Origin: a virus
Length of the DNA: 10,976 nucleotides
Virus genome (UHGV): UHGV-0119342
Strand: one strand, 5' to 3'
Part shown: positions 13 through 10,976 of the stretch, piece after piece
How the letters are laid out: each line of letters begins with the position of its first letter
Numbering within the stretch: position 1 is the stretch's first letter
Position numbers and translations under genes: made by a program
The notes under the pieces: model-generated
The model's input: the letters and a program-made list of their open reading frames with translations, nothing else
Told to the model about the DNA's origin: nothing
Databases searched by the model: none

Positions 13-61
13 TTAATCGCGGTTTACATCAGCGCGGCGTTAATCGGGTGATTTTCATCAG
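13..61. repeat. Imperfect tandem direct repeat upstream of the recombinase gene (ttaatcgcggtttacatcag at 13-32; ttaatcgggtgattttcatcag at 40-61)
   Basis: Two copies read directly, both starting with ttaatcg and ending with catcag, 27 bp apart; aatcgcg recurs at 93-99. Function not established. Confidence 0.4.
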
Positions 62-124
62 ACACGTTTAAATACACCATCTAAAGCGATACAATCGCGC
101 TATTAGTTTTTATGGTGGTAAAGA

Positions 125-1528
125 ATGAAACGTGTAATCAGCTACATCAGATTCAGTTCTGAGCGACAAGCCAAAGGCGACTCACTACGCAGACAGTCTA
201 AGATGGTTAATGACTGGCTTAAGGCTCATCCTGAGTACTACCTTGACCAAGATTTATCCTTCCGTGATTTGGGGGTGAGTGGGTTCACTGGTAAGCACTT
301 GAAAGGTGGCTTAGGTGACTTTTTAACCGCTATCGAGAAAGGGCTTGTTAAAGCTGGTGATACGCTCTTGATAGAATCTCTTGACCGTCTGTCACGTCAA
401 GATGTAGACCAAGCAAGTGAGCTACTCAGAAACATTCTTCGCTCTGGTGTAGATGTGGTCACCTTGTCCGATGGTGAACATTACACACGAGAATCTCTTA
501 AAGACCCGTTAGCTCTGATTAAAAGCATTTTGATAATGCAGCGGTCGCATGAGGAAAGTTTGAGGAAGTCTGAGCGTATACAAGCTGCATGGGATGCAAA
601 GAAAGAAGCTGCTAAAGCCGGTATCAAGATTTCTAGGCGTTGTCCTGCATGGCTTAAGCTTAATGATGACCGTAAAAGCTTCTCTGTGATACCTGAGAAG
701 GTAGAAACTGTGAGGAGATGCTTTCAATTACGGTTAGAGGGTAAGTCTATCTGGGAGATTGTCCGGATTCTTAATGATGAAGGTCACCAGACACTTAACC
801 AGTACAAAGCAGGTAAGTTTGGTCAAACCTCAGTGCAAGACCTTCTGAAAAATCGCTCTGTAATTGGTTACTTCACACCTAAAGGCTGTGAGGAGATAGT
901 TGGTTATTTCCCCCCTATCATCCCTGAGACTGATTTCTACAAAGTCCAGCAACTATCATATTCTCGTTATGGAAGAAAGCCTGCTTCAGATAAACCATTG
1001 AGTGTGAATCTTTTCAAAGGTGTTATCCGTTGTTCTGAATGTGGTCATGCTCTGATTATCACAGGCTTTAGCGATACAAGAAGCGGTATATATCGCTGTC
1101 CTTCTCGAAATGAAAACCGTTGCAATGCCAAAGGGCTGTCACGTAAGCAAACCGATGGTACATTACTTGCCCTGCTATCCCGTATAGACCGATTTGATAG
1201 CGATATGACGAATACCATAGACACACTGAAGCTACACCGTGAACACATCTCAAGCAATATTGAAAAGCTGGTACAGCTATCACTTGAAATTGAAGACTTG
1301 TCCGCTATTACCAGCAAACTAAAACAGTTAAAAGGTGAGCTATCACAGGTTGATGCGGATATCGAGAAGGAGACACAACGCCTTAAATCTATTGATGTGG
1401 GGTGTTTGTCTGATTGTGACTTGACTACAAAGGCGGGAAGGATTGAAGCACAACTGATAATCAAAAGTGCTGTTAAAGAGGTCGTTTTGAATACTGCTAA
1501 ACGTCGATGTAACTTTTCACAACGGTAA
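125..1528 (+). CDS. Large serine recombinase (integrase/resolvase family)
   Basis: 467-aa ORF. N-terminal resolvase-type catalytic region (YIRFSSERQ with candidate catalytic Ser; LIESLDRLSRQ), Cys-rich zinc-ribbon-like segment (CSECGH...YRCPSRNENRC), C-terminal coiled-coil-like stretch. GGTGG about 8 nt upstream of ATG. Confidence 0.85.
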   Translation: MKRVISYIRFSSERQAKGDSLRRQSKMVNDWLKAHPEYYLDQDLSFRDLGVSGFTGKHLKGGLGDFLTAIEKGLVKAGDTLLIESLDRLSRQDVDQASELLRNILRSGVDVVTLSDGEHYTRESLKDPLALIKSILIMQRSHEESLRKSERIQAAWDAKKEAAKAGIKISRRCPAWLKLNDDRKSFSVIPEKVETVRRCFQLRLEGKSIWEIVRILNDEGHQTLNQYKAGKFGQTSVQDLLKNRSVIGYFTPKGCEEIVGYFPPIIPETDFYKVQQLSYSRYGRKPASDKPLSVNLFKGVIRCSECGHALIITGFSDTRSGIYRCPSRNENRCNAKGLSRKQTDGTLLALLSRIDRFDSDMTNTIDTLKLHREHISSNIEKLVQLSLEIEDLSAITSKLKQLKGELSQVDADIEKETQRLKSIDVGCLSDCDLTTKAGRIEAQLIIKSAVKEVVLNTAKRRCNFSQR

Positions 1529-1554
1529 GGTAATTGACCTACCAATAACAGAAG

Positions 1555-1613
1555 ACCCCTCGGAGGATGTTACAGAGGCTATACAGTCGCTTTCTGAAGT
1601 CACTGAGAGGGGT
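1555..1613. terminator. Candidate structured terminator region between the convergent recombinase and 254-aa genes
   Basis: Perfect 7-bp inverted repeat acccctc (1555-1561) / gaggggt (1607-1613) with a 45-nt spacer that contains the motifs gttacagagg and agaggctatacag; T-rich flank on the minus-strand side. Long spacer makes terminator function uncertain. Confidence 0.3.
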
Positions 1614-1657
1614 TTAATAGATGTTGATGAGGTTATCATATAGTTGAGATTCTATCG

Positions 1658-2422
1658 TCAGTAGCGCTTGTTAGGATTCACAGAAAACTTCCGTAAAGCA
1701 TTACCCGACTTAAGCACCTTTGAAGCTTGCTCATTAGCTGAGGCTGTGAAGGTGCTCTCACCATTTTTAACGCTAACGCTCTTAGAGCACGTTACACGGG
1801 CTTTTAGCGCTTCATCTGATAACTCACTTGCCGAATAGCTAAAAAGCTCTTTACAGGTCAGCATAGGGCTTCCAAGGCTCGTTGTAGTGTTGCCAGTGTT
1901 CTTTTTACTGGTAGAACCGCCATCATTCGTGGTAGCGACCTTTCCAGTAGCTGCTGAAACATCAGTTTGCCCTACGATTGAACGAAATTCTACACCTTGG
2001 AAGGTCATCTGAATACGAAGACCATTAGCAATGGTATGCTCTTTACTCGCTTTAAACTGAGTAATGATACTATCAGTGATAGATATTCCATCTTTACAAA
2101 CAATAGTGATGATTTGCTTCTGGTCTCGCCATTGTTCAACCGTAGAAATAAAGGTCTCTACAAGTTGCCCCTGTCTGGTTAATAGAACTGAACCCGTCGA
2201 ATCAACCACTACAACACCGCTAATAGAGATGGTCTTAGGTGCTCTCTGAACATTATCAGTGATAGTTTGCCCCGATTGCATAGCCTGAGTTGTCACCATC
2301 ATCGGTGAGTCATAGTCCATCTGTTCAGTAGCTGTTAAGGCAAGAAAAGATTCTACATTATCTCTAAGGTGAAAATAGATACCATCTTTACCTGAGTATC
2401 TAATTTGCTTTGTGTCAAACAT
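1658..2422 (-). CDS. Hypothetical protein, possibly tail-associated (immediately downstream of the tape measure gene)
   Basis: 254-aa ORF, AGGA 9 nt upstream of ATG, Ser/Thr/Gly-rich C-terminal half. Functional guess from position only. Confidence 0.6.
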
Positions 2423-2441
2423 TGTTGTTATTCCTATTCTG

Positions 2442-2487
2442 TTAAGCGTGAGCTACGTGAAATCTAATTTTTGATGTTGGTATCTGC
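2442..2487 (-). promoter_or_regulatory. Conserved promoter-like element, copy A, about 20 nt upstream of the 254-aa gene start
   Basis: Minus-strand reading gcagataccaacatcaaaaattagatttcacgtagctcacgcttaa is about 70 percent identical to a 46-bp element upstream of the tape measure gene; contains a -10-like TAGATT after an A-tract, no canonical -35. Confidence 0.5.
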
Positions 2488-2553
2488 TCAGAAGAAATCA
2501 CGTAGCATTCGACTATTCATAGTTGAATCGTCATACTAGATAAAGATTAATAG

Positions 2554-2571
2554 ATTGCCATGTGTGGCAAT
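2554..2571 (-). terminator. Candidate hairpin 25 nt downstream of the tape measure stop
   Basis: Perfect 7-bp inverted repeat attgcca / tggcaat with 4-nt loop tgtg; AT-rich but not pure U tail on the minus strand. Weak terminator or attenuator. Confidence 0.3.
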
Positions 2572-2595
2572 AAATATTAGTAGTTCTAACATTGT

Positions 2596-4662
2596 TTATT
2601 CCTCTGGGTAAGCGGAGCTAATCAAGGTATCTTCCTGCATACGATTAATATGCGATGTGGTTCTTTCATCAATAACCTTTCCATCAAGTACCGTCTGAGT
2701 TGTGATATTGATTGTCTGAGGCTGAATATTTACTGACGGCTTGATAACCTTTAAATCTTGTGTGAATGTTTCCACTCGACCTTTCAGATTATTTAATGCT
2801 TCAGGTGAAAACTGTGGAACATCTTTTGATTTGCCATGAACCATAGCCCATAAAACAGCAGCTAAAGAGTTCATGTCACCAGTCAATGCTTGGTCTGTGG
2901 GTTCCACCTTTGACCTTACAACTTTGTCAATTGGATTATCTGACTTACTCATCTGACGTTCATAGAACGGTTTAACAATGGAGTTAATCACATCAGTTGC
3001 CATACCGACAATCATTACTTTGGTAATTGCATCAGCTACAGATAATTTTCCTTTACCACCTTCAACACTACCGGAACGTGAATTAATTCTTCCCGCTGCT
3101 GTATTTGCTACATTTCCAAGCATGGAAATAGCCCTAATTAAGTTCCAGATACCACCTACAGCACCAATACCAGACCTTACAGCGACAATACCAGCAAGTC
3201 CCTTTAATGCACTTAACAGGCCATTTGCGATACCATCAGCTACAGCTTTTTGAGTGTCATTTAATTCTCTGTAAGCAAGGGTCACTCTGTCAAAGAATCC
3301 CTGCACTCGGTAGCTAATCGTGGTTAAATCATCAATACCGTTTGACATGCTTTTCATCAGGTCGCCAAAATGTTCACCAAGATTTTTAGATTGACCACCT
3401 AGTGAATTAAGTAAATTAGTCAGTGACCTTGTAAAGTCTGTTAAACCTTCCTGTGAACCGTCGAACATTAAGGCCAGATTATTATTCCATGAATTAGAAA
3501 GGCGGCCTAACTGCGTCTGAGTAGAGTTAATAATCTTTTCCCATCCACCAGCTTTATCAATCATCCTTCCCATTTCAGCGGATACTTTAGGAAGAACATC
3601 TTTAGAAAGAACTTTACCGTTCTTCATAGCTGCATCTAATTGCTCGGTAGTCATCCCAAGGCTTCTGGCAAATAACTGGAAAGCACCTGCCATTCTGTCA
3701 CCTAATTGACCACGTAGCTCTTCAGCCTGAATCTTCCCTTTAGAAGCCATCTGCTCGAAAGCTTTCAGAATCCCGTTAATTTCATCAGTGCTTAAACCCA
3801 TTAGTCGGGATGTACCAATCACATTAGAAAATAAGGATTCTTTCTGGTCTGCATTCATATCACCAGCACCAGCGGAAAACTTAGCAAAGCTACTTAATGT
3901 TTCAATCTGGTCTACACCTGTATTATTAGCAAGATTCTTAACGAAGTCTGTAGCTCGTTTAGCGCCTTCATCGCCTAATACAAATTGTGCCGCTCGTTGT
4001 GATGCTTCTTTTTTCAGACCAATCTCCATAATCTTCCTATAAGCTTCTAAGGCTGTCTGAAAACTATAAATGGCTGTACCTGCTTTGATTGCACTTGTAG
4101 CTAATACATCTAAACCATTTGAAGCATTTTCACTGTGATTGTTTTTGCTGGTGGTCTTATTAAACTTAGAAAGTGTTTCACGTAGATTTTGATTTAACTT
4201 TGCTAACTCACGATTAAAAGCTTCGTTCCCAAGTGTCTTGGATTTACCGCTTAAGCTGTAATACTGGCTTCTAAAATACTTCTCAAGTAGAGGATTAAAG
4301 TCACGAAGCTTGCTCATATTCACGCTATGCGCTGCTGTGATTGCTCTGTTGCCGCTAATTCGTGGTTGCCTTGCTGCTTTAACAGTTTCTTCAACCTGAG
4401 TTTTGAACTTAAAGACCTTCGTAGATTTGGCTCTTTCCTCCAGCTTATTAAAAGTCTGGTTAATCTTCTTTTCCATATTCCCCAAAGAGGCTGTTAAATC
4501 CTTATCCATGCTCTTTGGGTTAACTTTAAATGCTCTATTCAAATTGCGTTCAATTCTTTGTGCTGACTGCAAAGCTGCCTTTTCAACTCTTTGCAGTCCC
4601 TTAATAACGTTTTCATTGAAGCCTAGCTCAACGATAAAACTATCAACTGTGAATTTGCTCAT
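2596..4662 (-). CDS. Phage tail tape measure protein
   Basis: 688-aa ORF. Coiled-coil-like N-terminal region, central segment resembling the conserved tape-measure domain (GKIQAEELRGQLGDRMAGAFQLFARSLGMTTEQLDAAMKNGKV), Gly-rich hydrophobic segments near the C-terminus. AGAGGTG 10 nt upstream of ATG. Confidence 0.8.
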   Translation of the reverse strand: MSKFTVDSFIVELGFNENVIKGLQRVEKAALQSAQRIERNLNRAFKVNPKSMDKDLTASLGNMEKKINQTFNKLEERAKSTKVFKFKTQVEETVKAARQPRISGNRAITAAHSVNMSKLRDFNPLLEKYFRSQYYSLSGKSKTLGNEAFNRELAKLNQNLRETLSKFNKTTSKNNHSENASNGLDVLATSAIKAGTAIYSFQTALEAYRKIMEIGLKKEASQRAAQFVLGDEGAKRATDFVKNLANNTGVDQIETLSSFAKFSAGAGDMNADQKESLFSNVIGTSRLMGLSTDEINGILKAFEQMASKGKIQAEELRGQLGDRMAGAFQLFARSLGMTTEQLDAAMKNGKVLSKDVLPKVSAEMGRMIDKAGGWEKIINSTQTQLGRLSNSWNNNLALMFDGSQEGLTDFTRSLTNLLNSLGGQSKNLGEHFGDLMKSMSNGIDDLTTISYRVQGFFDRVTLAYRELNDTQKAVADGIANGLLSALKGLAGIVAVRSGIGAVGGIWNLIRAISMLGNVANTAAGRINSRSGSVEGGKGKLSVADAITKVMIVGMATDVINSIVKPFYERQMSKSDNPIDKVVRSKVEPTDQALTGDMNSLAAVLWAMVHGKSKDVPQFSPEALNNLKGRVETFTQDLKVIKPSVNIQPQTINITTQTVLDGKVIDERTTSHINRMQEDTLISSAYPEE

Positions 4663-4679
4663 TCATATTTTTCACCTCT

Positions 4680-4725
4680 TTAAGCGTGTTGTACGTAAAT
4701 TCTATTTTTCAGTGTGGGTATTAGC
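4680..4725 (-). promoter_or_regulatory. Conserved promoter-like element, copy B, about 18 nt upstream of the tape measure start
   Basis: Minus-strand reading gctaatacccacactgaaaaatagaatttacgtacaacacgcttaa; -10-like TAGAAT after an A-tract; both copies end in CACGCTTAA just before the RBS. Confidence 0.5.
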
Positions 4726-4779
4726 TTTACAGATTTCATGAGGATAATTCTTATCCGAATCATCACGTAGCACACATAC

Positions 4780-4821
4780 AAAAAAAGGGAGAGCTACCGA
4801 TGTCACTCGATAATCTCTCCC
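4780..4821 (-). terminator. Rho-independent terminator (minus strand) between the 71-aa gene and the tape measure gene
   Basis: Perfect 7-bp GC-rich stem GGGAGAG / CTCTCCC (4787-4793 / 4815-4821), 21-nt loop, followed on the minus strand by a run of 7 U (4780-4786). Confidence 0.55.
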
Positions 4822-4871
4822 CGTACTATAGATTCGATAGAACCTATCTCATATACCCAACCAATTCTTTT

Positions 4872-5087
4872 TTAATGTCTGACAAGATAATGTAATTCCG
4901 TTTCACCTATGATTTGAGCATCAGAAGGAATACGGTCAATACACCACTTTGGAATCTTGCGTGTTTTTGGTTTGTGTGAGGTGATAACTTGACGTTTGTT
5001 TTTAATTCTTAAGGCTGGCTTAGTTTGTAACTTTAAGTTTTCACAAGCCGACTTAATAGTTTCATAACGCTGTTGCAAATCAATCAT
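4872..5087 (-). CDS. Hypothetical small basic protein
   Basis: 71-aa ORF, GAGGT 6 nt upstream of ATG, starts 23 nt after the stop of the upstream 234-aa gene; Lys/Arg-rich C-terminal half. Confidence 0.6.
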   Translation of the reverse strand: MIDLQQRYETIKSACENLKLQTKPALRIKNKRQVITSHKPKTRKIPKWCIDRIPSDAQIIGETELHYLVRH

Positions 5088-5110
5088 TCATCTACCTCAC
5101 ATATGCATAA

Positions 5111-5815
5111 TCAAACAGCCTTGCTAAATTCTCGTGGAACACTCAGAAAATCATTGAAGCTGATAATCTGTGCCAACTCTTGACGGTACTCCTTAGCCAG
5201 CGCTTGATGGTCACTAATCAGCTTAGCCAGTCTTGATTTCAGCAAATTAATCTCATTTTCTCTTGCTTTCATCAGTTTCTCTTTGGCAATTTCTTCAAGC
5301 TCAGCTTGTGATTTATCAGCAACAATTAGAGACAATCGATGTGGTGCTCTGACAGCTCTTTCCGTACGAATAACCCTTTGACCTTCTGGTAAATCTGCAA
5401 TCACTTTACCAATCTCTACAGGGTCATACCCCCAACCGTCACGGTCTAGTCGAGAGAAATAAGCATAAGAATTGGTTTGAAGCTCCATTAAAATAGCCAT
5501 TTCGTCAATTTCGTCTTCAAGCTTGGACTGAATTTTCTCGTAAACACTTCTCATTGCTTCTTGAGAGTCTTTAATAGCTTGGAAATATCGGCGTTGTAGC
5601 TTCAACTTCAAATCAAGTTCACAACTTTCGTTCATAGAAAAATCAATTTCAACTCTTGGAATCTCGAGTGGTTCTGGTGGAATATATGGACCTTTATTTA
5701 CTTCGTGTGATTCCCGCCAAGCTCTATCAAAAGATTCACGCAAAGTTAATTCGTGAATATCAAGTGCACTTGGTCGGCTTTCAATAATCATTTCATTTTC
5801 ATCACGGATAGCCAT
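5111..5815 (-). CDS. Hypothetical acidic protein with coiled-coil-like C-terminal half
   Basis: 234-aa ORF, AGAGGAAAGG 5 nt upstream of ATG; heptad-like helical C-terminal region. No recognisable catalytic motif. Confidence 0.65.
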   Translation of the reverse strand: MAIRDENEMIIESRPSALDIHELTLRESFDRAWRESHEVNKGPYIPPEPLEIPRVEIDFSMNESCELDLKLKLQRRYFQAIKDSQEAMRSVYEKIQSKLEDEIDEMAILMELQTNSYAYFSRLDRDGWGYDPVEIGKVIADLPEGQRVIRTERAVRAPHRLSLIVADKSQAELEEIAKEKLMKARENEINLLKSRLAKLISDHQALAKEYRQELAQIISFNDFLSVPREFSKAV

Positions 5816-6020
5816 TAATACCTTTCCTCTTCTAAGATAATTTATGTTTCAGTTTTTAAAAAGCACACCTGACATCCTCGAACTTAGAAGAGGCTTAAAA
5901 GGCGTTTGCCAAGTATGCTTTTTAAAAGCTGAAAAGGCCCTAGATAACTAAAACGCTATAAAGGGCTAAGGTGAAGAAATTAAAACATCTAAAGGATTCA
6001 ATAACGAATGAACAAGAGTA

Positions 6021-6069
6021 CTTTTCGAGATGACCTCTCAGGTTATATAAGAGGTCATGTAGCGAAAAG
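6021..6069. repeat. Nested palindrome in the leader upstream of the 234-aa gene
   Basis: Inner perfect 9-bp inverted repeat atgacctct / agaggtcat (6030-6038 / 6050-6058) with 11-nt spacer, flanked by outer arms cttttcg (6021-6027) / cgaaaag (6063-6069). No U-tract on either strand. Confidence 0.45.
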
Positions 6070-6155
6070 CATTGCACCTTTCCAAATCAGAATATCCATC
6101 CATCGGATTATTGAAAATATGATTTTAGGAAGAGTTGCTCTTCCCTATAATTAAA

Positions 6156-6184
6156 ATTATGTCATACTTAAGGTTATTTGTCAA
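6156..6184 (-). promoter_or_regulatory. Candidate sigma70-type promoter (minus strand) for the 234-aa / 71-aa genes
   Basis: Minus-strand -35 TTGACA (6179-6184), 17-bp spacer, -10 CATAAT (6156-6161); implies a leader of about 330 nt. Confidence 0.4.
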
Positions 6185-6462
6185 CAGCCTTTTAACAGAT
6201 TGGTAACATCAATTTCTATTTACTGTGTTGCCTACCCAGCAACCAACAAATAAGCCAAGCAACGTCCAAGCAATTATTAAGCCCATTAGTGAACCCTCAC
6301 AGAATCCGTAACCAAAATATTGTCGCCGTACAGGATTGTCACAGCACCTTTCAAAAATTGCTCTGGGGAAATACTGTATTTGTTCGTTTGCTCGATAACC
6401 AATCTTTTCATGTCGCTGTCTGCAATTGGTAGCATCATTCGAGGCTCGTTAAACTCCACCGA

Positions 6463-6609
6463 CTAAATAAAGTCAGAGATGTTTTCTGCATTATCAGCCA
6501 TCAGCTTTAGTAATTTATCAAAATTAATTGCGATACCTGCATCACTGAAAGCCTGAATCATCAGAGCGGTGTCGTTATCAACGAAAATCTGTAATTCGTA
6601 ATTGCTCAT
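6463..6609 (-). CDS. Small acidic hypothetical protein (48 aa, not in the supplied ORF track)
   Basis: Hand translation MSNYELQIFVDNDTALMIQAFSDAGIAINFDKLLKLMADNAENISDFI; AAGGAG 9 nt upstream of ATG. Confidence 0.4.
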   Translation of the reverse strand: MSNYELQIFVDNDTALMIQAFSDAGIAINFDKLLKLMADNAENISDFI

Positions 6610-6764
6610 TTTTAAAATCTCCTTTTTACCAGACCTCCTCAATCGCTCTGTAACGAGCTAAACAGTCTTTTTCAGGGGTAGCCTGTACAGTGGTATTACC
6701 CACCCTAAAATAAGATAGTTTTTTGCGTTAGAATGCGATTGAGAGCGTCTGAGAAGCTGTTTTT

Positions 6765-7052
6765 CTAATTTCTCTTAAAGTCTCGGACTTGCATAAGATT
6801 TTTTGGTCTGGTATCGGCTCTGTTACCATTTCGATGGATAATTTGCTTATTGGATTGATAGCCATGATAAAGGAACCAGACAACATATTTCACGTAGAAA
6901 GTATATCGGCCTATATTAAATGTTTTGTTGCCGTAGTCGTCGGTATTTATCGTGACTGACTCTCCATCAGACCAGCACAGGGAATCACTGGATTCATCAT
7001 AGATAAGGTGTTCTGTAAAATATCGTCTAACATCTTCATGCCAAGGTTTCAT
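6765..7052 (-). CDS. Truncated HNH-like protein, paralogue of the N-terminal part of the 9540-10064 endonuclease
   Basis: 95-aa ORF, GAGGAGG 4 nt upstream of ATG. Shares KPWHEDVRRY with KAWPEEVIRY and VVWFLYHG...IIHRNGNRADTRPKNL with VIFYLYHG...IDHIDGDPLNNAISNL, but ends before the final HNH Asn and has no AP2 domain. Confidence 0.65.
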   Translation of the reverse strand: MKPWHEDVRRYFTEHLIYDESSDSLCWSDGESVTINTDDYGNKTFNIGRYTFYVKYVVWFLYHGYQSNKQIIHRNGNRADTRPKNLMQVRDFKRN

Positions 7053-7264
7053 AAAACCTCCTCACCCCAATAACCTAATTCAATCTTGTGACGCTCAAAC
7101 CATTCTGGCTTGACTGCTGCTTTCAGTACTTCATTTGGGCCAATGGCTTTAATGAAAATATCTTTTGAGTTATGGATGTCACCGAATCCGTTTCCTTTAA
7201 TCAGGAGGTCGGAGATGTAGCGAATCATTTTATCTGTGTGGTATTCAAAGGTAACGCATAGCAT
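7049..7264 (-). CDS. Hypothetical protein
   Basis: 71-aa ORF, GGAGG 4 nt upstream of ATG; start overlaps the stop of the upstream gene by 1 nt, and its stop overlaps the start of the 95-aa gene by 4 nt. Confidence 0.55.
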   Translation of the reverse strand: MLCVTFEYHTDKMIRYISDLLIKGNGFGDIHNSKDIFIKAIGPNEVLKAAVKPEWFERHKIELGYWGEEVL

Positions 7265-7542
7265 TAAACCTCCAGAGACAGCTTGTGAATTTTAAGACTC
7301 AATAGACGGGCAATATCAATCTTAAAGCCGTTAAGCGCCTTCAAAGTAGCTAAAGCGTCCTGACTAATTCGGATGTGTTTACGACCTTTAGAGACTGGAT
7401 ATTTCAGTAAATCCGACTCAGTAACCTCTTTAGCAATTGCAAGCTGCATAACAGTTTGATGAGGGAGGTTAGTTGTCTGTTTAATTCGGGTAAGCTCGTG
7501 AAAGGCTTCTTCTGAAATACGGGTCAAAGTGTGTTTCTTCAT
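7264..7542 (-). CDS. Ribbon-helix-helix (CopG/Arc-like) DNA-binding protein, putative regulator
   Basis: 92-aa ORF, AGAGGA 8 nt upstream of ATG. N-terminus MKKHTLTRISEEAFHELTRIKQTTNLPHQTVMQLAIAKEV fits the RHH strand-helix-helix pattern; a second similar segment (HIRISQDALATLKAL...) may be a tandem repeat. Confidence 0.55.
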   Translation of the reverse strand: MKKHTLTRISEEAFHELTRIKQTTNLPHQTVMQLAIAKEVTESDLLKYPVSKGRKHIRISQDALATLKALNGFKIDIARLLSLKIHKLSLEV

Positions 7543-8100
7543 TTAAAATTCCTCTGTAACTAAATACGGGTCAAACTCAAAGTCTGGTTGCTCGTTTTCC
7601 ATTGGCTCAATATTTCCAACGGCAATATGATGCTCAACAACACCAATTAACTTTGCGCACATTACAGCAAGCAATGCACAATATTTATCGCTTGGTAATT
7701 CGTAGCTAAGTCTGGTTGCTTGTCGCTGAAGATGATTTGTCACGGTGGCTGAGTTAATTTCATCAAGGTTCTTTAGGAGATAAAATAGCTTCTTGTTGTA
7801 TTTCGGGTGACCTTCACCTCTACAGAATCCAATGAAAATATCATCAAGCTTACTTGGTAATTGTTCGTAGCTGTCAAAGTTAGCCAGATAATTTTTGATG
7901 CTGTTCTTTGTTGTTTTGCGTACTGACATATAACGACTCCTCGGTGTAATTGCCCGAATTACTTCGTCAATGCCTTTGCGCTCTGCTCTGGTGAACTTGG
8001 GTACTTCGTGACTGGTGGGGGAGTTTGTGTAAGCGTAGGAGTTGTGCTTGTTGCGTTCTCTTGATGCCTGAAGCATCGCTCTAAATTCTCTGTCGTTCAT
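7543..8100 (-). CDS. Hypothetical protein, first gene of the leftward operon
   Basis: 185-aa ORF, GAGGG 11 nt upstream of ATG; stop codon directly abuts the next start (TAAATG). Acidic/aromatic C-terminal tail (DFEFDPYLVTEEF). No recognisable domain. Confidence 0.6.
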   Translation of the reverse strand: MNDREFRAMLQASRERNKHNSYAYTNSPTSHEVPKFTRAERKGIDEVIRAITPRSRYMSVRKTTKNSIKNYLANFDSYEQLPSKLDDIFIGFCRGEGHPKYNKKLFYLLKNLDEINSATVTNHLQRQATRLSYELPSDKYCALLAVMCAKLIGVVEHHIAVGNIEPMENEQPDFEFDPYLVTEEF

Positions 8101-8151
8101 TCATGTTCTGACCCTCATAAGATGTTATTATTCTGTTAACTTATATATACA

Positions 8152-8180
8152 ATCTTAGCAGTTTCAAAGACTAATGTCAA
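8152..8180 (-). promoter_or_regulatory. Candidate sigma70-type promoter for the leftward operon
   Basis: Minus-strand -35 TTGACA (8175-8180), 17-bp spacer, -10 TAAGAT (8152-8157); back-to-back with the plus-strand promoter. Confidence 0.3.
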
Positions 8181-8187
8181 GCATTTT

Positions 8188-8217
8188 TTAACATTTCATT
8201 AACATCTGTGGTATAAT
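8188..8217 (+). promoter_or_regulatory. Candidate strong sigma70-type promoter with extended -10
   Basis: -35 TTAACA (8188-8193), 18-bp spacer, TGg + TATAAT (8209-8217); points toward the small ORF at 8348. Confidence 0.5.
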
Positions 8218-8347
8218 GGTTTTATGAGAGAGGGAAAATATAAAGGCGTGGCTATGAGGTTTATTCGATAGGGGTTGGTACAAGCCCAACTAACCGAATC
8301 AACTATGTATTTGGTCACATGGTATTGCATTGCACACAGGAAATTTA

Positions 8348-8524
8348 ATGGTAAATCTCCCTCCTGAGCTGGGGTCACCTGATGTATGGGCTGGTGGAGG
8401 TGTTGGGCTGATTGCAGGCCTGCTACTTCGCTATGTCCTCGTCAGAGTGCTTGTTGTCTTTAAACTGTTCGGTCGTACATGGACGCTTGACCTTAAGGAT
8501 AATGACCACACAGACCCCCGTTAA
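8348..8524 (+). CDS. Small single-pass membrane protein (58 aa from the ATG; the ORF track begins at a TTG at 8330)
   Basis: AGGA 6 nt upstream of the ATG at 8348; hydrophobic segment WAGGGVGLIAGLLLRYVLVRVLVV; locally GC-richer than its surroundings. Confidence 0.45.
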   Translation: MVNLPPELGSPDVWAGGGVGLIAGLLLRYVLVRVLVVFKLFGRTWTLDLKDNDHTDPR

Positions 8525-8538
8525 ACTCCCTCCAAAAC

Positions 8539-8570
8539 CCCCTGTACGAGATAGTATAGGGGTGTCTTTA
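8539..8570 (+). terminator. Candidate terminator after the small membrane-protein ORF
   Basis: Imperfect 8-bp stem cccctgta / tatagggg (one mismatch), 8-nt loop, followed by tgtcttta. Confidence 0.3.
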
Positions 8571-9453
8571 GCATTTTGTGCTATCTATTAAAAAATAGCT
8601 TGACAGAACAGGAAAGCTGTATCTATCAAGTATTCACCTCTCTGACAGTAATTTCTAAAAGTTCTTATTTTTCAATAAGTTGTAATTAGCCAATATATAA
8701 GGCTGTCCAGTACCTTCACAGAAAAACTTCAGAAGCCTTCTTAATCAATCCACTAAGCGAGAGAGAGCGATAACCCCAGAGAGGGAAGCTCCCTTCTTAA
8801 AAACCTTCTTGACAATCTTTACAGGCCTTGTTCAAGGTAATCGCAATAGTTTTTCTTCCCTCGGTTTCCCGTGTTCCTCGGTTTGCCTATTGAGGTTTGA
8901 AAGACCTCTGTAACTTCCCTCTTAGACAGGGAAGAATAATATTGGTGACACAAGCGAAGCGCCCCTCTAAAAAGATTTTTTAGCTATTTTGTTTAAAAGC
9001 ACATCAAACGATACATTTTATTGATTTAGGTCAAAGACAAAAGCATTGACAAAATGGTAAGATTGTTCACATGACCTTACTTAACAGATTCTTAAGAGCT
9101 TTGAAGCGGCCTATTTAACAAGGTCACTACCTCTGGTCTTATCGTTCCCTCTCTTCTTGGTAGTTCTGTTAAGTATCTTTTCAGGTATCTCTTACAGTCA
9201 CTGTTAAGATGATACTCTCCCTTCGGGTTATATCGTTACTTTCTCTCCCGTTAAACACTCCTTCCTAACTATCTACATAATCACTTCTAAGAATCTTACA
9301 AGGTAATATCCAGACCTCTTATAGCTGACCTGATACAGAAACATTACAGGCATACTCTCTAGGTTCTGTGTAGTTCCCTTGGTGGGAATAGATGCTCCTA
9401 CAATAAGAGCATCATTAATCTATATAGTCCTCTTCCGAGAACTTAATAGTTTT

Positions 9454-9481
9454 TTGATGTACATCAATCATTATCTAAAAT
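9454..9481 (+). promoter_or_regulatory. Candidate promoter for the HNH endonuclease gene
   Basis: -35 TTGATG (9454-9459), 16-bp spacer, -10 TAAAAT (9476-9481). Confidence 0.3.
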
Positions 9482-9539
9482 ATGATATGAAGTTTCTTGG
9501 TAGTATTACATCAACAAGTTAATTGAAATAAGGAATATT

Positions 9540-10064
9540 ATGGTGACTAGGTATACCAAGGCATGGCCTGAAGAAGTTATAAGATACATCAATGAAAATA
9601 TTACAGCAGATTTTGAATCTGGAACATTATTTAGAAATGGTGTAAAAATCGAGGGTTCACTTGTAAATCCTAAACCAAGACAATATCTGGCTTTTGGTTG
9701 TCGGATTAATGGTAAGTTCAGAATACTTAAGGTGCATCAGGTTATTTTCTATCTATATCATGGTAAACAAGCTAAACTATGGATTGACCATATAGATGGT
9801 GACCCGCTAAATAATGCTATTAGCAATCTTCGCGAGGTTACCAAAGAGCAGAATCAGGCAAACATGATACCCAGAAAGAAAACAAAATCAGGTTACAAGG
9901 GAGTACACCCAAGAGTGGATAACAAGGGGTTCTGGGCTACAATACGCTGTAATGGAAAATCTCATTATCTGGGTCAGTTTAATACAGCAGAAGAAGCTGC
10001 AAAAGCCTATGATGCTGCATCACTGGAATTGCATGGTAAATATGGACACAGGAATTTTAGCTGA
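9540..10064 (+). CDS. Free-standing homing endonuclease, NUMOD4-like N-terminus + HNH nuclease + AP2 DNA-binding domain
   Basis: 174-aa ORF, AAGGA 5 nt upstream of ATG. HNH motif VHQVIFYLYHG...IDHIDGDPLNNAISNLREVTKEQNQAN; AP2-like C-terminus YKGVHPRVDNKGFWATIRCNGKSHYLGQFNTAEEAAKAYDAAS. Confidence 0.85.
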   Translation: MVTRYTKAWPEEVIRYINENITADFESGTLFRNGVKIEGSLVNPKPRQYLAFGCRINGKFRILKVHQVIFYLYHGKQAKLWIDHIDGDPLNNAISNLREVTKEQNQANMIPRKKTKSGYKGVHPRVDNKGFWATIRCNGKSHYLGQFNTAEEAAKAYDAASLELHGKYGHRNFS

Positions 10065-10074
10065 TAGTTAATAA

Positions 10075-10104
10075 AGACCTGACATAAACTTGTCGATAGG
10101 TCTG
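10075..10104 (+). terminator. Candidate stem-loop downstream of the HNH endonuclease gene
   Basis: agacctgaca ... tgtcgataggtct: 10 paired positions with a 3-nt bulge, AT-rich tail (gattaaagtttat); weak as an intrinsic terminator. Confidence 0.3.
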
Positions 10105-10896
10105 ATTAAAGTTTATACAGTGATTTTTCATCTTCTAATTTTTTTATAAAAATCGTAGTACCCCCTCTACATTCCCCTTCACCGATAATCTTAAAAAATA
10201 TCTACACTCAATTGATGGCTGTTAAGTACCCCAGATTCACGATATAGCACCCCCTTTGCAAAAGCAGTTAAAATATCTATAACCAATTATTGACTTTCTT
10301 CATAGCATCTGTTTACCTCCACCTCAAAAAAACCTTCATCACATTTCACAGCATCTATCAAGAAGATTTAACCTATCAATAGCTGTAACATTTTATAGTC
10401 CTGTGAAGTCCTCCCCAGTTTTCTCTGTAACAGACACAAACTTCTGTGACCTTATGTGTCAATGACTTATAAGACATGCTCTCAAGGTGCTGTATAGCCT
10501 CTTATCTTCCAATACATAAAACTCTTATAAATCAGTACTGATATGTATACAGTTCGTTTTTAACATAATAGCTGTTTTACGCACTAAGAAGCATCTACGT
10601 AGATTCTGTATAGAGATTAAGATGTCTCTAAGTGATTTTTTAAGAGGAGATACGAAGGAACTATAACCATCACTTCATAACTTTCACGTAGGTAGCTATT
10701 AAGTAGGTTGATAGTCACTTTGAGGGAATATTGATAGTGACCAACTGCATAGACACCGTTATATAGCCCTGTATATAGCACTATATGTAGTGTCTGGAGA
10801 GGAACGACTAACACGATACAGTTTACCCTGAAAAGAGACTTCACAGATTCTCTATATATTTCAATAAGTTATGATAAAAAGAGACTATATCAATAC

Positions 10897-10955
10897 TGCA
10901 TAGAATCTGTGTAGGATTGCATAGATACTTGGAAAAATGCCTTTAAATTGCATAG
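10897..10955. repeat. Helically phased TGyrTAG repeats (iteron-like or operator-array-like)
   Basis: TGCATAG at 10897, TGTGTAG at 10908, TGCATAG at 10918 and TGCATAG at 10949; spacings 11, 10 and 31 bp. The last two copies sit in a longer direct repeat ATTGCATAG(A/G)TAC. Confidence 0.45.
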
Positions 10956-10976
10956 GTACTAACCTGTTTATGTCCT

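Follow-up and report, generated by a model that had tools for sequence, protein, structure and literature searches.

A recurrent nine-base word in the non-coding DNA of a phage-derived island family of Enterobacteriaceae, a candidate recognition element

Results

The window, by which is meant the whole 10,976-nt stretch of DNA analysed here, covers the greater part of an island of 11.9 kb that is integrated in the yecE gene of E. coli. The island encodes a large serine recombinase together with tape-measure and Dit genes that are related to those of Felix O1-like phages (72-76% identical to their phage counterparts). Its right arm runs for more than 1 kb without genes, and its cargo arm is variable among islands. 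Two sigma-70-like promoters, P_L and P_R (Table 1), lie back-to-back at 8152-8217; they are predicted from consensus alone, matching it at 10/12 and 11/12 positions, each with a TG before the -10, and are strongly conserved in the island alignment. Fourteen versions of the island, from E. coli, Shigella, E. fergusonii, Salmonella, Citrobacter and a metagenome, were compared. Rfam and tRNA scans of the window returned nothing, and in scans of viral contigs the island was not found, the 14-mer matching no more often than by chance and the 19-mer c4 block not at all. A literature search on the island, or on any satellite of Felix O1-like phages, found nothing relevant, and the island family appears to be uncharacterised and undescribed.

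Table 1. Positions of the word, its near matches and the neighbouring features in the window
Feature	Position	Strand	Description
CCTCTGTAAC	7551-7560	+	exact match
CCTCTGTAAC	8905-8914	+	exact match
CCTCTGTAAC	1569-1578	-	exact match
CTCTGTAAC, further copy	6646-6654	+	exact match
CTCTGTAAC, further copy	10423-10431	+	exact match
Near match CTCTGTAAT	856-864	+	within recombinase gene; coding
Near match CTCTGTAAG	3267-3275	+	within tape-measure gene, antisense to gene; coding
c1	1569-1577	-	C-terminal coding part of intact recombinase, GTT ACA GAG = V-T-E
c2	6646-6654	+	left arm of E110 hairpin element, upstream of 107-aa gene
c3	7552-7560	+	last codons of minus-strand 185-aa gene, GTT ACA GAG GAA TTT TAA
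c4	8906-8914	+	conserved block GGTTTGAAA-nnn-CTCTGTAAC, then pyrimidine tract facing purine tract
c5	10423-10431	+	invariant stretch CCAGTTTTCTCTGTAACAG, right-hand non-coding region, between convergent genes
E110	6631-6747		imperfect palindrome of ~120 nt containing c2; terminal boxes CAGACCTCCTCAATCGC ... GCGATTGAGAGCGTCTG
p92 gene	7264-7542	-	92-aa single-chain double ribbon-helix-helix (RHH) protein; AlphaFold2 model, beta-alpha-alpha twice
P_L	8180-8152	-	sigma-70-like, consensus match; predicted to drive leftward operon
P_R	8188-8217	+	sigma-70-like, consensus match; predicted to drive rightward transcript

The word CTCTGTAAC is present in five exact copies in the window, where 0.07-0.09 are expected. 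A direct count returned every exact copy of the 9-mer and 10-mer at the coordinates given in the initial annotation, which was also right about the near match CTCTGTAAG but had placed CTCTGTAAT one base too far to the left, at 855-863. Both near matches are coding sequence, and nothing marks either as a site. The initial annotation held that the repetition is far above chance. A raw maximum-count test proved too weak to judge this, since low-complexity words dominate it (12% of dinucleotide shuffles give some 9-mer at five or more copies), and it was therefore replaced by a test that compares the count of every word with the count expected for that word. Scored per word, CTCTGTAAC is enriched over the shuffled controls and is the most surprising 9-mer of the window (P = 5e-8), and none of 300 shuffles holds any 9-mer as extreme, so the claim stands. 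Two other words of the window, CTACGTGA(AA) and CTGTTAAG, have an over-representation equal to or above that of CTCTGTAAC.

The comparison of islands leads to the same result. At the level of the family, a non-redundant pan-sequence of 47 kb has CTCTGTAAC in seven contexts that are unrelated to one another, where 0.34 would be expected (P = 8e-8; about 0.01 after Bonferroni correction over all 9-mers). Each of the 14 island versions carries two to six copies, and the flanking host chromosome has none in 81 kb. The repetition is genuine and the word is kept in the non-coding DNA of the islands. From these comparisons, CTCTGTAAC is best regarded as a true cis-acting word that belongs to a single family of phage-derived islands in Enterobacteriaceae.

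The five copies in the window are not equivalent. Three of them (c2, c4 and c5) lie in conserved non-coding blocks, and in each conserved class the word falls within one of the best-conserved non-coding stretches. The c2 copy is exact in eight islands and has a core, GCTCTGTAACGAG, that is invariant across diverged variants of its element (motif identity 1.00, flanks 0.85). The c4 copy is exact in the window, L002, L011, L013 and L015, with one mismatch in the other islands (CCCTGTAAC, CTTTGTAAC or CTCTGTAAA); its motif identity is 0.94, whilst its flanks fall into two haplotypes at 0.71. The c5 copy is exact wherever the region exists (the window, L002, L003, L004, L006, L013 and L017) and is kept in L013 despite diverged flanks. 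A CTGTAAC 40 bp upstream of c5 is the sole related word nearby.

The remaining two, c1 and c3, are lineage-specific, belong to coding sequence and are probably incidental. In intact relatives c1 lies within the recombinase reading frame, and it is non-coding in the window only through a 5-bp deletion after 1508 that truncates the gene. It is confined to the E. coli-type recombinase allele: L013 reads ATCTGTAAC there, L017 reads CCCTGTAAC, and L011 and L015 are without c1. The c3 copy overlaps the Shine-Dalgarno sequence of the 92-aa gene but is limited to the window/L001, L005 and L140, other versions reading CTCTGCTTG or CTCCAAAAT in its place. The placing of c1 in a convergent terminator region by the initial annotation reflects the deletion; its position for c3, at the 3' end of the 185-aa gene and over a ribosome-binding site, is correct, but only a minority of versions keep that copy. 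The 185-aa protein itself has no Pfam, PHROG or PDB match, and its model is unusable (pLDDT 44).

Across the 14 islands, the non-coding copies almost all have one orientation. Upstream of the 107-aa gene, which is a pseudogene in the window, two unrelated alternative intergenic sequences occur, one in L003, L011 and L142 and the other in the rest, and both contain the exact word, in opposite orientations. The alternative intergenic region has no homologue in the window, nor has a junction of tandem 85-bp units at which the exact word is also found. Exact copies stand at least 900 bp apart, with no adjacent subsites, direct or inverted. An iteron-like organisation of the right arm was not found, the copies being dispersed over 9 kb in no regular array, and no initiator gene was recognised on the island, so an iteron-type origin is not indicated. 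No copy lies within P_L/P_R in the window; in five relatives there is one about 100 nt downstream of the predicted P_R.

The E110 element that holds c2 folds at -42.7 kcal/mol (z = -5.2) on the plus strand and -44.1 kcal/mol (z = -6.0) on the minus strand, and among its variants the plus strand has several G-U-compatible changes and two pairs altered on both sides. A second E110 copy, carrying the word as c2', is present in the rightward leader of L002, L003, L006, L007 and L142, and inverted copies are present in L006, L015 and L140, with termini GCTCTGTARCG...CGTTACAGAGC. E110 has no match in phage records but is present in 378 of 5426 E. coli genomes (~7% of complete genomes, O157:H7 included). 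It has inverted termini, yet it was rejected as a MITE- or REP-like dispersed repeat because it is confined to the island family, at a median of one place per genome in those 378.

The p92 gene is present in all 14 islands, all of which have the word. Island variants without p92 were sought and none was found, so co-occurrence of gene and word cannot discriminate. The AlphaFold2 model of p92, a confident one (pLDDT 92.5), has as its top structural matches F-plasmid TraY, DndE and AvtR, at the modest level of TM 0.5-0.6 and E ~0.1.

Discussion

The word may, tentatively, be taken as the recognition element of an island-encoded DNA-binding protein, for which p92 is the best candidate. We infer three things here: that the reader of the word is a protein and not an RNA partner, that this protein is p92, and what its binding would do. 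The initial annotation had suggested the site of an element-encoded regulator, either the RHH protein or the AP2 domain of an HNH enzyme. A regulator is still the best reading, and the predicted RHH fold and the presence of its gene throughout the family agree with it; the AP2 domain drops out (see below). The word is also conserved in related elements, in all 14 islands and for three of the five copies as non-coding sites.

The modelled fold suggests p92 as the best remaining candidate because it suits an asymmetric site: a single major groove would receive the asymmetric beta-sheet of one p92 chain, which could in this way read an isolated, non-palindromic site. The word is indeed both asymmetric and isolated, as would suit a pseudo-dimeric RHH protein. 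The functional copies would be the conserved non-coding ones: c2, in the E110 arm that precedes the 107-aa gene; c2', in the E110 copy that relatives have in the rightward leader; and, in the untranslated right arm, c4, c5 and the copy cX of relatives. Binding might adjust expression of the structural operon, which runs leftward, and of the cargo transcript, which runs rightward, or might organise the right arm. The right arm also carries an Ounavirinae terminal-repeat fragment. The occurrence of the word in either orientation upstream of the 107-aa gene favours a DNA-level site, presumably able to work both ways.

Several features count against p92. In the window the cores of the two predicted promoters are free of the word, and the convergent genes on either side of c5 leave no need for a promoter there. 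A probable DNA-facing residue, S59, is changed to E in the Citrobacter and metagenome alleles, with the word unchanged. Classical RHH operators consist of two or more adjacent subsites, and the copies of the word stand alone; for a single-chain double RHH protein, paired subsites may be dispensable. The single orientation of most copies and the location of c2 in a very stable, G-U-compatible hairpin would fit a role in RNA as well.

That the word acts in RNA is unlikely but has several points on its side. It could belong to an E110-type structure, or be a BoxA-like Nus-factor loading site that would shield a long untranslated rightward transcript from Rho termination, or seed pairing between divergent transcripts, with the leftward mRNA carrying GUUACAGAG and the rightward RNA CUCUGUAAC. 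Besides the shared orientation of the non-coding copies, the exceptional stability of the E110 hairpin (z = -5 to -6) with its double-sided pair changes, the leader copy of relatives just downstream of P_R and the gene-free right arm all suit such a role. The gamma-proteobacterial BoxA consensus is GYTCTTTAANA (10.1101/091223), of which the E110 copy CGCTCTGTAAC has 9 of 11 positions, and BoxA protects long non-coding transcripts (PMC7665894). BoxA and nut sites occur in rrn operons, lambdoid phages, suhB and CRISPR leaders; on this reading the island, too, would have an RNA word of 11 nt in leader regions of transcripts that are long and untranslated, and at one copy the word is followed by a possible hairpin, as boxA is by boxB. 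However, every copy has G at position 6, where mutation together with C4 abolishes BoxA function, and G1 is found in the E110 copies only and A11 in c5 only. The published consensus is therefore not matched, and BoxA was discarded. An element also has several copies of the word, where an operon has a single BoxA. A nut-like hairpin at c4 has almost no support from a formal consensus fold (4 consensus pairs, -4.2 kcal/mol), in which a pyrimidine tract faces a purine tract. Further, c2 is antisense to the sole transcript predicted across it, that of the leftward operon, although c2' of relatives would be on the sense strand of the rightward transcript if P_R is real. Variation at c4 (CCCTGTAAC, CTTTGTAAC) is not matched by any change in the invariant c2, so that compensation between the putative pairing partners is lacking. 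A role in RNA is also opposed by the site upstream of the 107-aa gene, where the word takes either orientation at one and the same place.

It is similarly improbable that the word has no function, its excess being the sum of E110 duplication, larger conserved blocks and chance or coding copies. In keeping with this, c2, c2' and the inverted copies go back to duplication of a single element, c1 and c3 lie in coding sequence without being conserved, and the flanks of c4, c5 and cX are about as conserved as the word, with 14-29 of 141 nine-base windows its equal; from the counts, it is estimated that the three non-coding copies alone would fail look-elsewhere correction. The seven unrelated contexts survive that correction, though, and the exact word recurs in DNA unrelated to the window and is invariant in element variants with diverged flanks. 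Compared by eye with consensus sequences, the word fits none of LexA, IHF, CRP, TyrR, Tus-Ter, sigma-E and integron attC.

A doubtful alternative is that the reader is a helper-phage or host factor and that the word is part of a packaging, replication or induction signal by which a Felix O1-like phage would act on the island, comparable to the cos/pac mimicry of satellites or the dispersed initiator sites known from the satellite P4. Links to such phages lie in the tape-measure and Dit genes and in a block of ~60 bp (9115-9182) that is found only in Ounavirinae phages and lies, in phage HP1, within the 570-bp direct terminal repeat. Concentration at the end of the phage genome is seen for another word of the island, CTGTTAAG, at 4.65 per kb compared with 0.16 per kb (30-fold; the terminal region of JLBYU28 being positions 1-1720), and the related words gtCTGTAACAGta and CCTCTGTAAAG occur in phage terminal regions. 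The right arm shares both a block and a word with the Ounavirinae terminal repeat, whose words CTCTGTAAC resembles in composition. Yet CTCTGTAAC is exact rather than degenerate, and the phage end has no excess of it or of CTGTAAC (JLBYU28 has 0 copies and HP1 has 2), CTGTAAC being absent from positions 1-1720 of JLBYU28. A Felix O1-like genome has four exact copies against 0.98 expected, all within genes and none in the repeat-rich genome end, and these few intragenic copies also dispose of the phage-specific promoter raised in the initial annotation. The island copies are spread over 4-9 kb, not clustered as in a pac site or iterons, and the viral contigs did not yield the island. A k-mer profile of likeness to phage ends is raised in the non-coding arms of the island, but is confounded by non-coding composition.

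A target of the island HNH endonucleases (the HNH-AP2 enzyme or a 95-aa HNH protein), as also first suggested, is very improbable and was rejected in its homing-endonuclease form too: both proteins have an HNH_3 domain, one has an AP2 DNA-binding domain and the small HNH gene is immediately followed by c2, but the word is kept, in the same places, in eight islands without the HNH-AP2 gene (L003, L005, L006, L007, L011, L013, L015 and L017) and in two without the small one (L003 and L011), so that by this comparison it is independent of both genes, and multiple self-cleavage sites in the island's own DNA would be costly.

Taken alone, the word would be of an ordinary kind, a short cis element of a mobile element, and its value is as a handle on an island family that combines a large serine recombinase, Felix O1-related tape-measure and Dit genes, a phage terminal-repeat fragment and a variable cargo arm. 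A speculative and rather improbable extension is that virulent Felix O1-like (Ounavirinae) phages are parasitised by a PLE-like island, a satellite or a defence element, whose cis-code would be the word. In such a scheme p92 bound at CTCTGTAAC sites would hold the island silent until phage infection releases it, release would switch on decoy tape-measure and Dit proteins together with the cargo arm, and packaging of the island would be made possible by the terminal-repeat fragment of the right arm. Should the island prove to be a satellite or defence element against these phages, the CTCTGTAAC sites and the double-RHH protein would form a testable regulatory switch, and this would matter because phages of the Felix O1-like group are used for typing and biocontrol of Salmonella and E. 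coli.

Amongst known systems, the proposed pairing of p92 and word most resembles the operators or accessory sites of the single-chain double-RHH proteins TraY (F plasmid; at oriT and PY) and AvtR (archaeal virus), and of the classical RHH repressors Arc, Mnt and CopG. In each, the mobile element has a small RHH protein of its own and short element-specific words lie in non-coding control regions; a pseudo-dimeric RHH protein could read an asymmetric site, and p92 resembles TraY, DndE and AvtR in its predicted structure. The island differs in that its copies are isolated rather than adjacent subsites, that none lies on a predicted core promoter in the window, that there is no relaxase or oriT context and that p92 has no sequence similarity to these proteins that could be detected. 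The island as a whole recalls PLE, which in V. cholerae is a satellite of a virulent myovirus, ICP1. This island carries tape-measure and Dit genes, and neither a replication initiator nor a gene for capsid remodelling was identified on it. The likeness is one of layout: a small island (~12-18 kb) with a large serine recombinase, divergent operons flanking a non-coding region, a nuclease gene, a variable cargo arm and sequence links to a virulent myovirus.

Over-representation of the word

The 9-mer CTCTGTAAC, which extends to CCTCTGTAAC in its 10-mer form, is over-represented in the window, and this observation is confirmed. All five exact copies (c1 to c5, from left to right) listed in the initial annotation are found in the window sequence where it placed them; the near match CTCTGTAAT is also present, but at 856-864, one base from its reported position. 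The expected count of this 9-mer in the window is 0.07-0.09. A raw count is a weak test because 12% of dinucleotide shuffles hold some 9-mer with at least five copies, these being low-complexity words. In a stronger test, which measures every word against the Markov expectation for that word and sets the window beside 300 shuffles, CTCTGTAAC comes out as the most surprising 9-mer of the window (P = 5e-8), and no 9-mer in any of the shuffles is as extreme. In the non-redundant 47-kb island pan-sequence, where contexts rather than inherited copies are counted, the word occurs in seven unrelated contexts against 0.34 expected (P = 8e-8; about 0.01 when Bonferroni-corrected for all 9-mers), and 81 kb of flanking host chromosome contains no copy. 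The own-expectation test also flags CTACGTGA(AA), with six and four copies, and CTGTTAAG, with seven.

Positions of the word, of other repeated words and of the main features of the island
Feature	Position	Strand	Remarks
CCTCTGTAAC (c3, c4)	7551-7560, 8905-8914	+	exact
CCTCTGTAAC (c1)	1569-1578	-	exact
9-mer CTCTGTAAC, further copies (c2, c5)	6646-6654, 10423-10431	+	
CTACGTGA	2453-2460 (+), 2498-2505 (-), 4178 (-), 4763 (-), 6890 (-), 10684 (-)		6 copies, 0.17 expected
CTGTTAAG	2332, 2439, 3212 (-), 9080 (-), 9166, 9201, 10219		7 copies, 0.53 expected
E. coli Chi site GCTGGTGG	3545-3552 (-), 4147-4154 (+), 8390-8397 (+)		3 copies, 0.15 expected
TCTGTTAAC	8131-8139		
Island	53-10976		continues about 950 bp past the window; 15053-26928 in island version L001
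Large serine recombinase	leftmost		507 aa intact, 467 aa in the window owing to the deletion
Leftward operon		leftward	185-aa, 92-aa, 71-aa, HNH (95 aa), 107-aa, 234-aa, 71-aa, tape measure (688 aa), Dit-like (254 aa)
107-aa gene	6286-6610	-	
E110 hairpin element	6631-6747		
92-aa protein (p92), modelled as double RHH	7264-7542	-	
Sigma-70-like promoters (predicted)	8152-8217		back-to-back
Small membrane-protein ORF	right of promoters (the 58-aa ORF below)		
58-aa ORF	8348-8524	+	
Terminator-like hairpin	8539-8562		after the 58-aa ORF
Non-coding DNA, about 2.3 kb	right part of island		broken by the HNH-AP2 gene
Block homologous to Ounavirinae phages	9115-9182		
HNH-AP2 gene	9540-10064	+	

The island and its variation

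Save for a 5-bp deletion after 1508, the window is the sequence of E. coli Z0117EC0032 (NZ_CP098217), and it makes up the greater part of an 11.9-kb island by which yecE (DUF72) is split. The tape-measure and Dit genes show 72-76% DNA identity to those of Felix O1-like phages, with gene order kept. The five bases missing at 1508/1509 (GTAAA) are present in otherwise identical genomes. Since the deletion truncates the recombinase, excision of the island in the window may be impossible; the missing bases could also reflect a mistake in the source sequence.

Several other parts of the island vary. An internal stop interrupts the 107-aa gene both in the window and in the reference record, whose annotation calls it a pseudogene; all other island versions keep the gene. 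The 58-aa ORF, directly 3' of the strong rightward promoter, encodes one hydrophobic helix and is conserved in all versions, with the E110 hairpin inserted in its leader in five relatives; its product could be a small toxin, a holin-like protein or an exclusion protein. Insertion of the HNH-AP2 gene is optional: many versions lack the gene, and in O157:H7 it is disrupted by IS1203. Elsewhere (L002-L007) the right arm carries an FRG-domain protein with neighbour genes, a Dam-type methyltransferase, a small serine recombinase or IS elements, and this variable arm resembles a cargo or defence hotspot.

Conservation and setting of the copies

Fourteen island versions were compared: eight from E. 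coli (87-100% identity), one each from E. fergusonii, Shigella sonnei (a decayed copy) and Salmonella, two from Citrobacter and one from a metagenome. The Salmonella, Citrobacter and metagenome versions are about 73% identical, or have other recombinases and integration sites. The word is present in all 14, in two to six copies each, and in most of them it ranks first or nearly first among the 9-mers.

The copies fall into distinct classes. c1 occurs only with one recombinase allele and appears intergenic in the window because of the 5-bp deletion; in intact relatives it lies in frame within the recombinase, contrary to the non-coding setting at first assigned to it. c2 lies in the left arm of E110, and a second E110 copy lies between the rightward promoter and the small ORF in five relatives. 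In islands with a 128-aa gene in place of the HNH region, an unrelated intergenic sequence 5' of the 107-aa gene carries the exact word in the opposite orientation. A further copy, cX, lies at the junction of a tandemly duplicated 85-bp unit that is single in the window. c3 is carried by only three versions, c4, which belongs to a conserved block GGTTTGAAA-nnn-CTCTGTAAC, is kept exactly by five islands and with a single mismatch by the others, and c5 is invariant in every version having its region. Column-wise identity of word against flanks is 1.00 vs 0.85 for c2, 0.94 vs 0.71 for c4, 1.00 vs 0.92 for c5 and 0.98 vs 0.89 for cX, and all four fall within the best-conserved stretches; the word is not uniquely conserved, since adjacent bases are conserved too.

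E110 itself is an imperfect palindrome of about 120 nt, whose predicted folding energy is -42.7 kcal/mol for the + strand (z = -5.2) and -44.1 kcal/mol for the - strand (z = -6.0). In the + strand consensus fold the word pairs with the opposite arm, and there are several G-U-compatible changes and two pairs altered on both sides. In three relatives E110 is inverted within the right arm, and the termini of the inverted variants are GCTCTGTARCG and CGTTACAGAGC. Of 5426 complete E. coli genomes, 378 contain the element, mostly as one copy; it is limited to this island family and was not found in phage records.

Other repeated words

With four copies against 0.018 expected, CTACGTGAAA surpasses the reported word in significance. 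Two copies of CTACGTGA, separated by 37 bp, make an inverted pair immediately 5' of the Dit gene; this pair is kept in all E. coli and Citrobacter versions, and another copy lies upstream of the tape-measure gene. The Felix O1-like phage shows no enrichment of CTACGTGA. In that phage, JLBYU28, CTGTTAAG is concentrated about 30-fold, on a single strand, at the genome end that is poor in genes; it also occurs within the terminal repeat of Citrobacter phage HP1. The three Chi sites are a number reached by none of 200 shuffles. The most over-represented 9-mer of the pan-sequence is GCTGGTGGA (eight copies vs 0.26 expected). TCTGTTAAC, in whose place several relatives have CTCTGTTAAC, differs from the reported word by an additional T; this leader site, just 3' of the leftward promoter, is invariant among eight aligned versions, and its likeness to the word may mark a related site or be coincidental.

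What may read the word

The initial annotation suggested a site for an element-encoded regulator, and this part of its proposal is plausible. The best remaining candidate as reader is p92, whose AlphaFold2 model (pLDDT 92.5) has the beta-alpha-alpha arrangement twice and has as its best PDB matches TraY of the F relaxosome, DndE and AvtR (probability 0.9-0.96, TM 0.5-0.6, E about 0.1). The model is likest these single-chain double-RHH proteins. Proteins of this kind have an asymmetric sheet, with which an isolated site that is not a palindrome can be recognised. Homologues of p92 are found only within this island family, and its gene adjoins that of the 185-aa protein, for which modelling gave no usable structure, in every version. 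A protein site in DNA fits the use of either orientation at one position, the exactness of the word across unrelated contexts, its restriction to the island and the presence of a suitable encoded reader. However, the copies are solitary, none lies on a predicted core promoter in the window, c5 is flanked by convergent genes, and one residue of p92 that probably faces the DNA differs between versions in which the word is constant. A site read by p92 is put forward tentatively as the leading reading, at rather less than an even chance.

The strong strand bias of the copies and the hairpin context would suit a role in RNA too, though such a role seems unlikely; consensus support for the hairpin beside c4 is almost nil. 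The gamma-proteobacterial BoxA consensus is GYTCTTTAANA, in which C4 is critical and a C4T/T6C mutant is inactive (10.1101/091223). The word fails this consensus, with G at position 6 in every island copy and most copies lacking G1; the idea keeps a rationale because BoxA shields long untranslated transcripts from Rho (PMC7665894). It is likewise unlikely, to about the same degree, that the nine bases as such lack function.

Reading by a helper-phage or host factor is distinctly improbable. JLBYU28 has four copies against 0.98 expected, every one inside a gene, and the core CTGTAAC is missing from its repeat-rich end, which lends no support to a helper-phage motif or to the phage-specific promoter at first suggested. 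A nuclease target is very improbable, and the HNH enzymes, including the HNH-AP2 protein originally proposed, are excluded as readers, as the word is kept in islands without the HNH-AP2 gene and in those without the small HNH gene.

Phage links and relation to known systems

The word is of interest chiefly as a way in to the island. No description of this island was found in the searchable literature, and viral contigs gave no sign of it. The block at 9115-9182 is 80-90% homologous to one found only in Ounavirinae phages (45 records). In HP1 that phage block falls within a 570-bp direct terminal repeat given in the annotation, and the island may have acquired its version from a helper-type phage as a signal for packaging or replication. 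Along with tail genes related to those of phages, the recombinase and a right arm that differs between versions, this block makes the island look like a candidate satellite or defence island aimed at Felix O1-like phages, with an architecture similar to that of the Vibrio PLE satellites.
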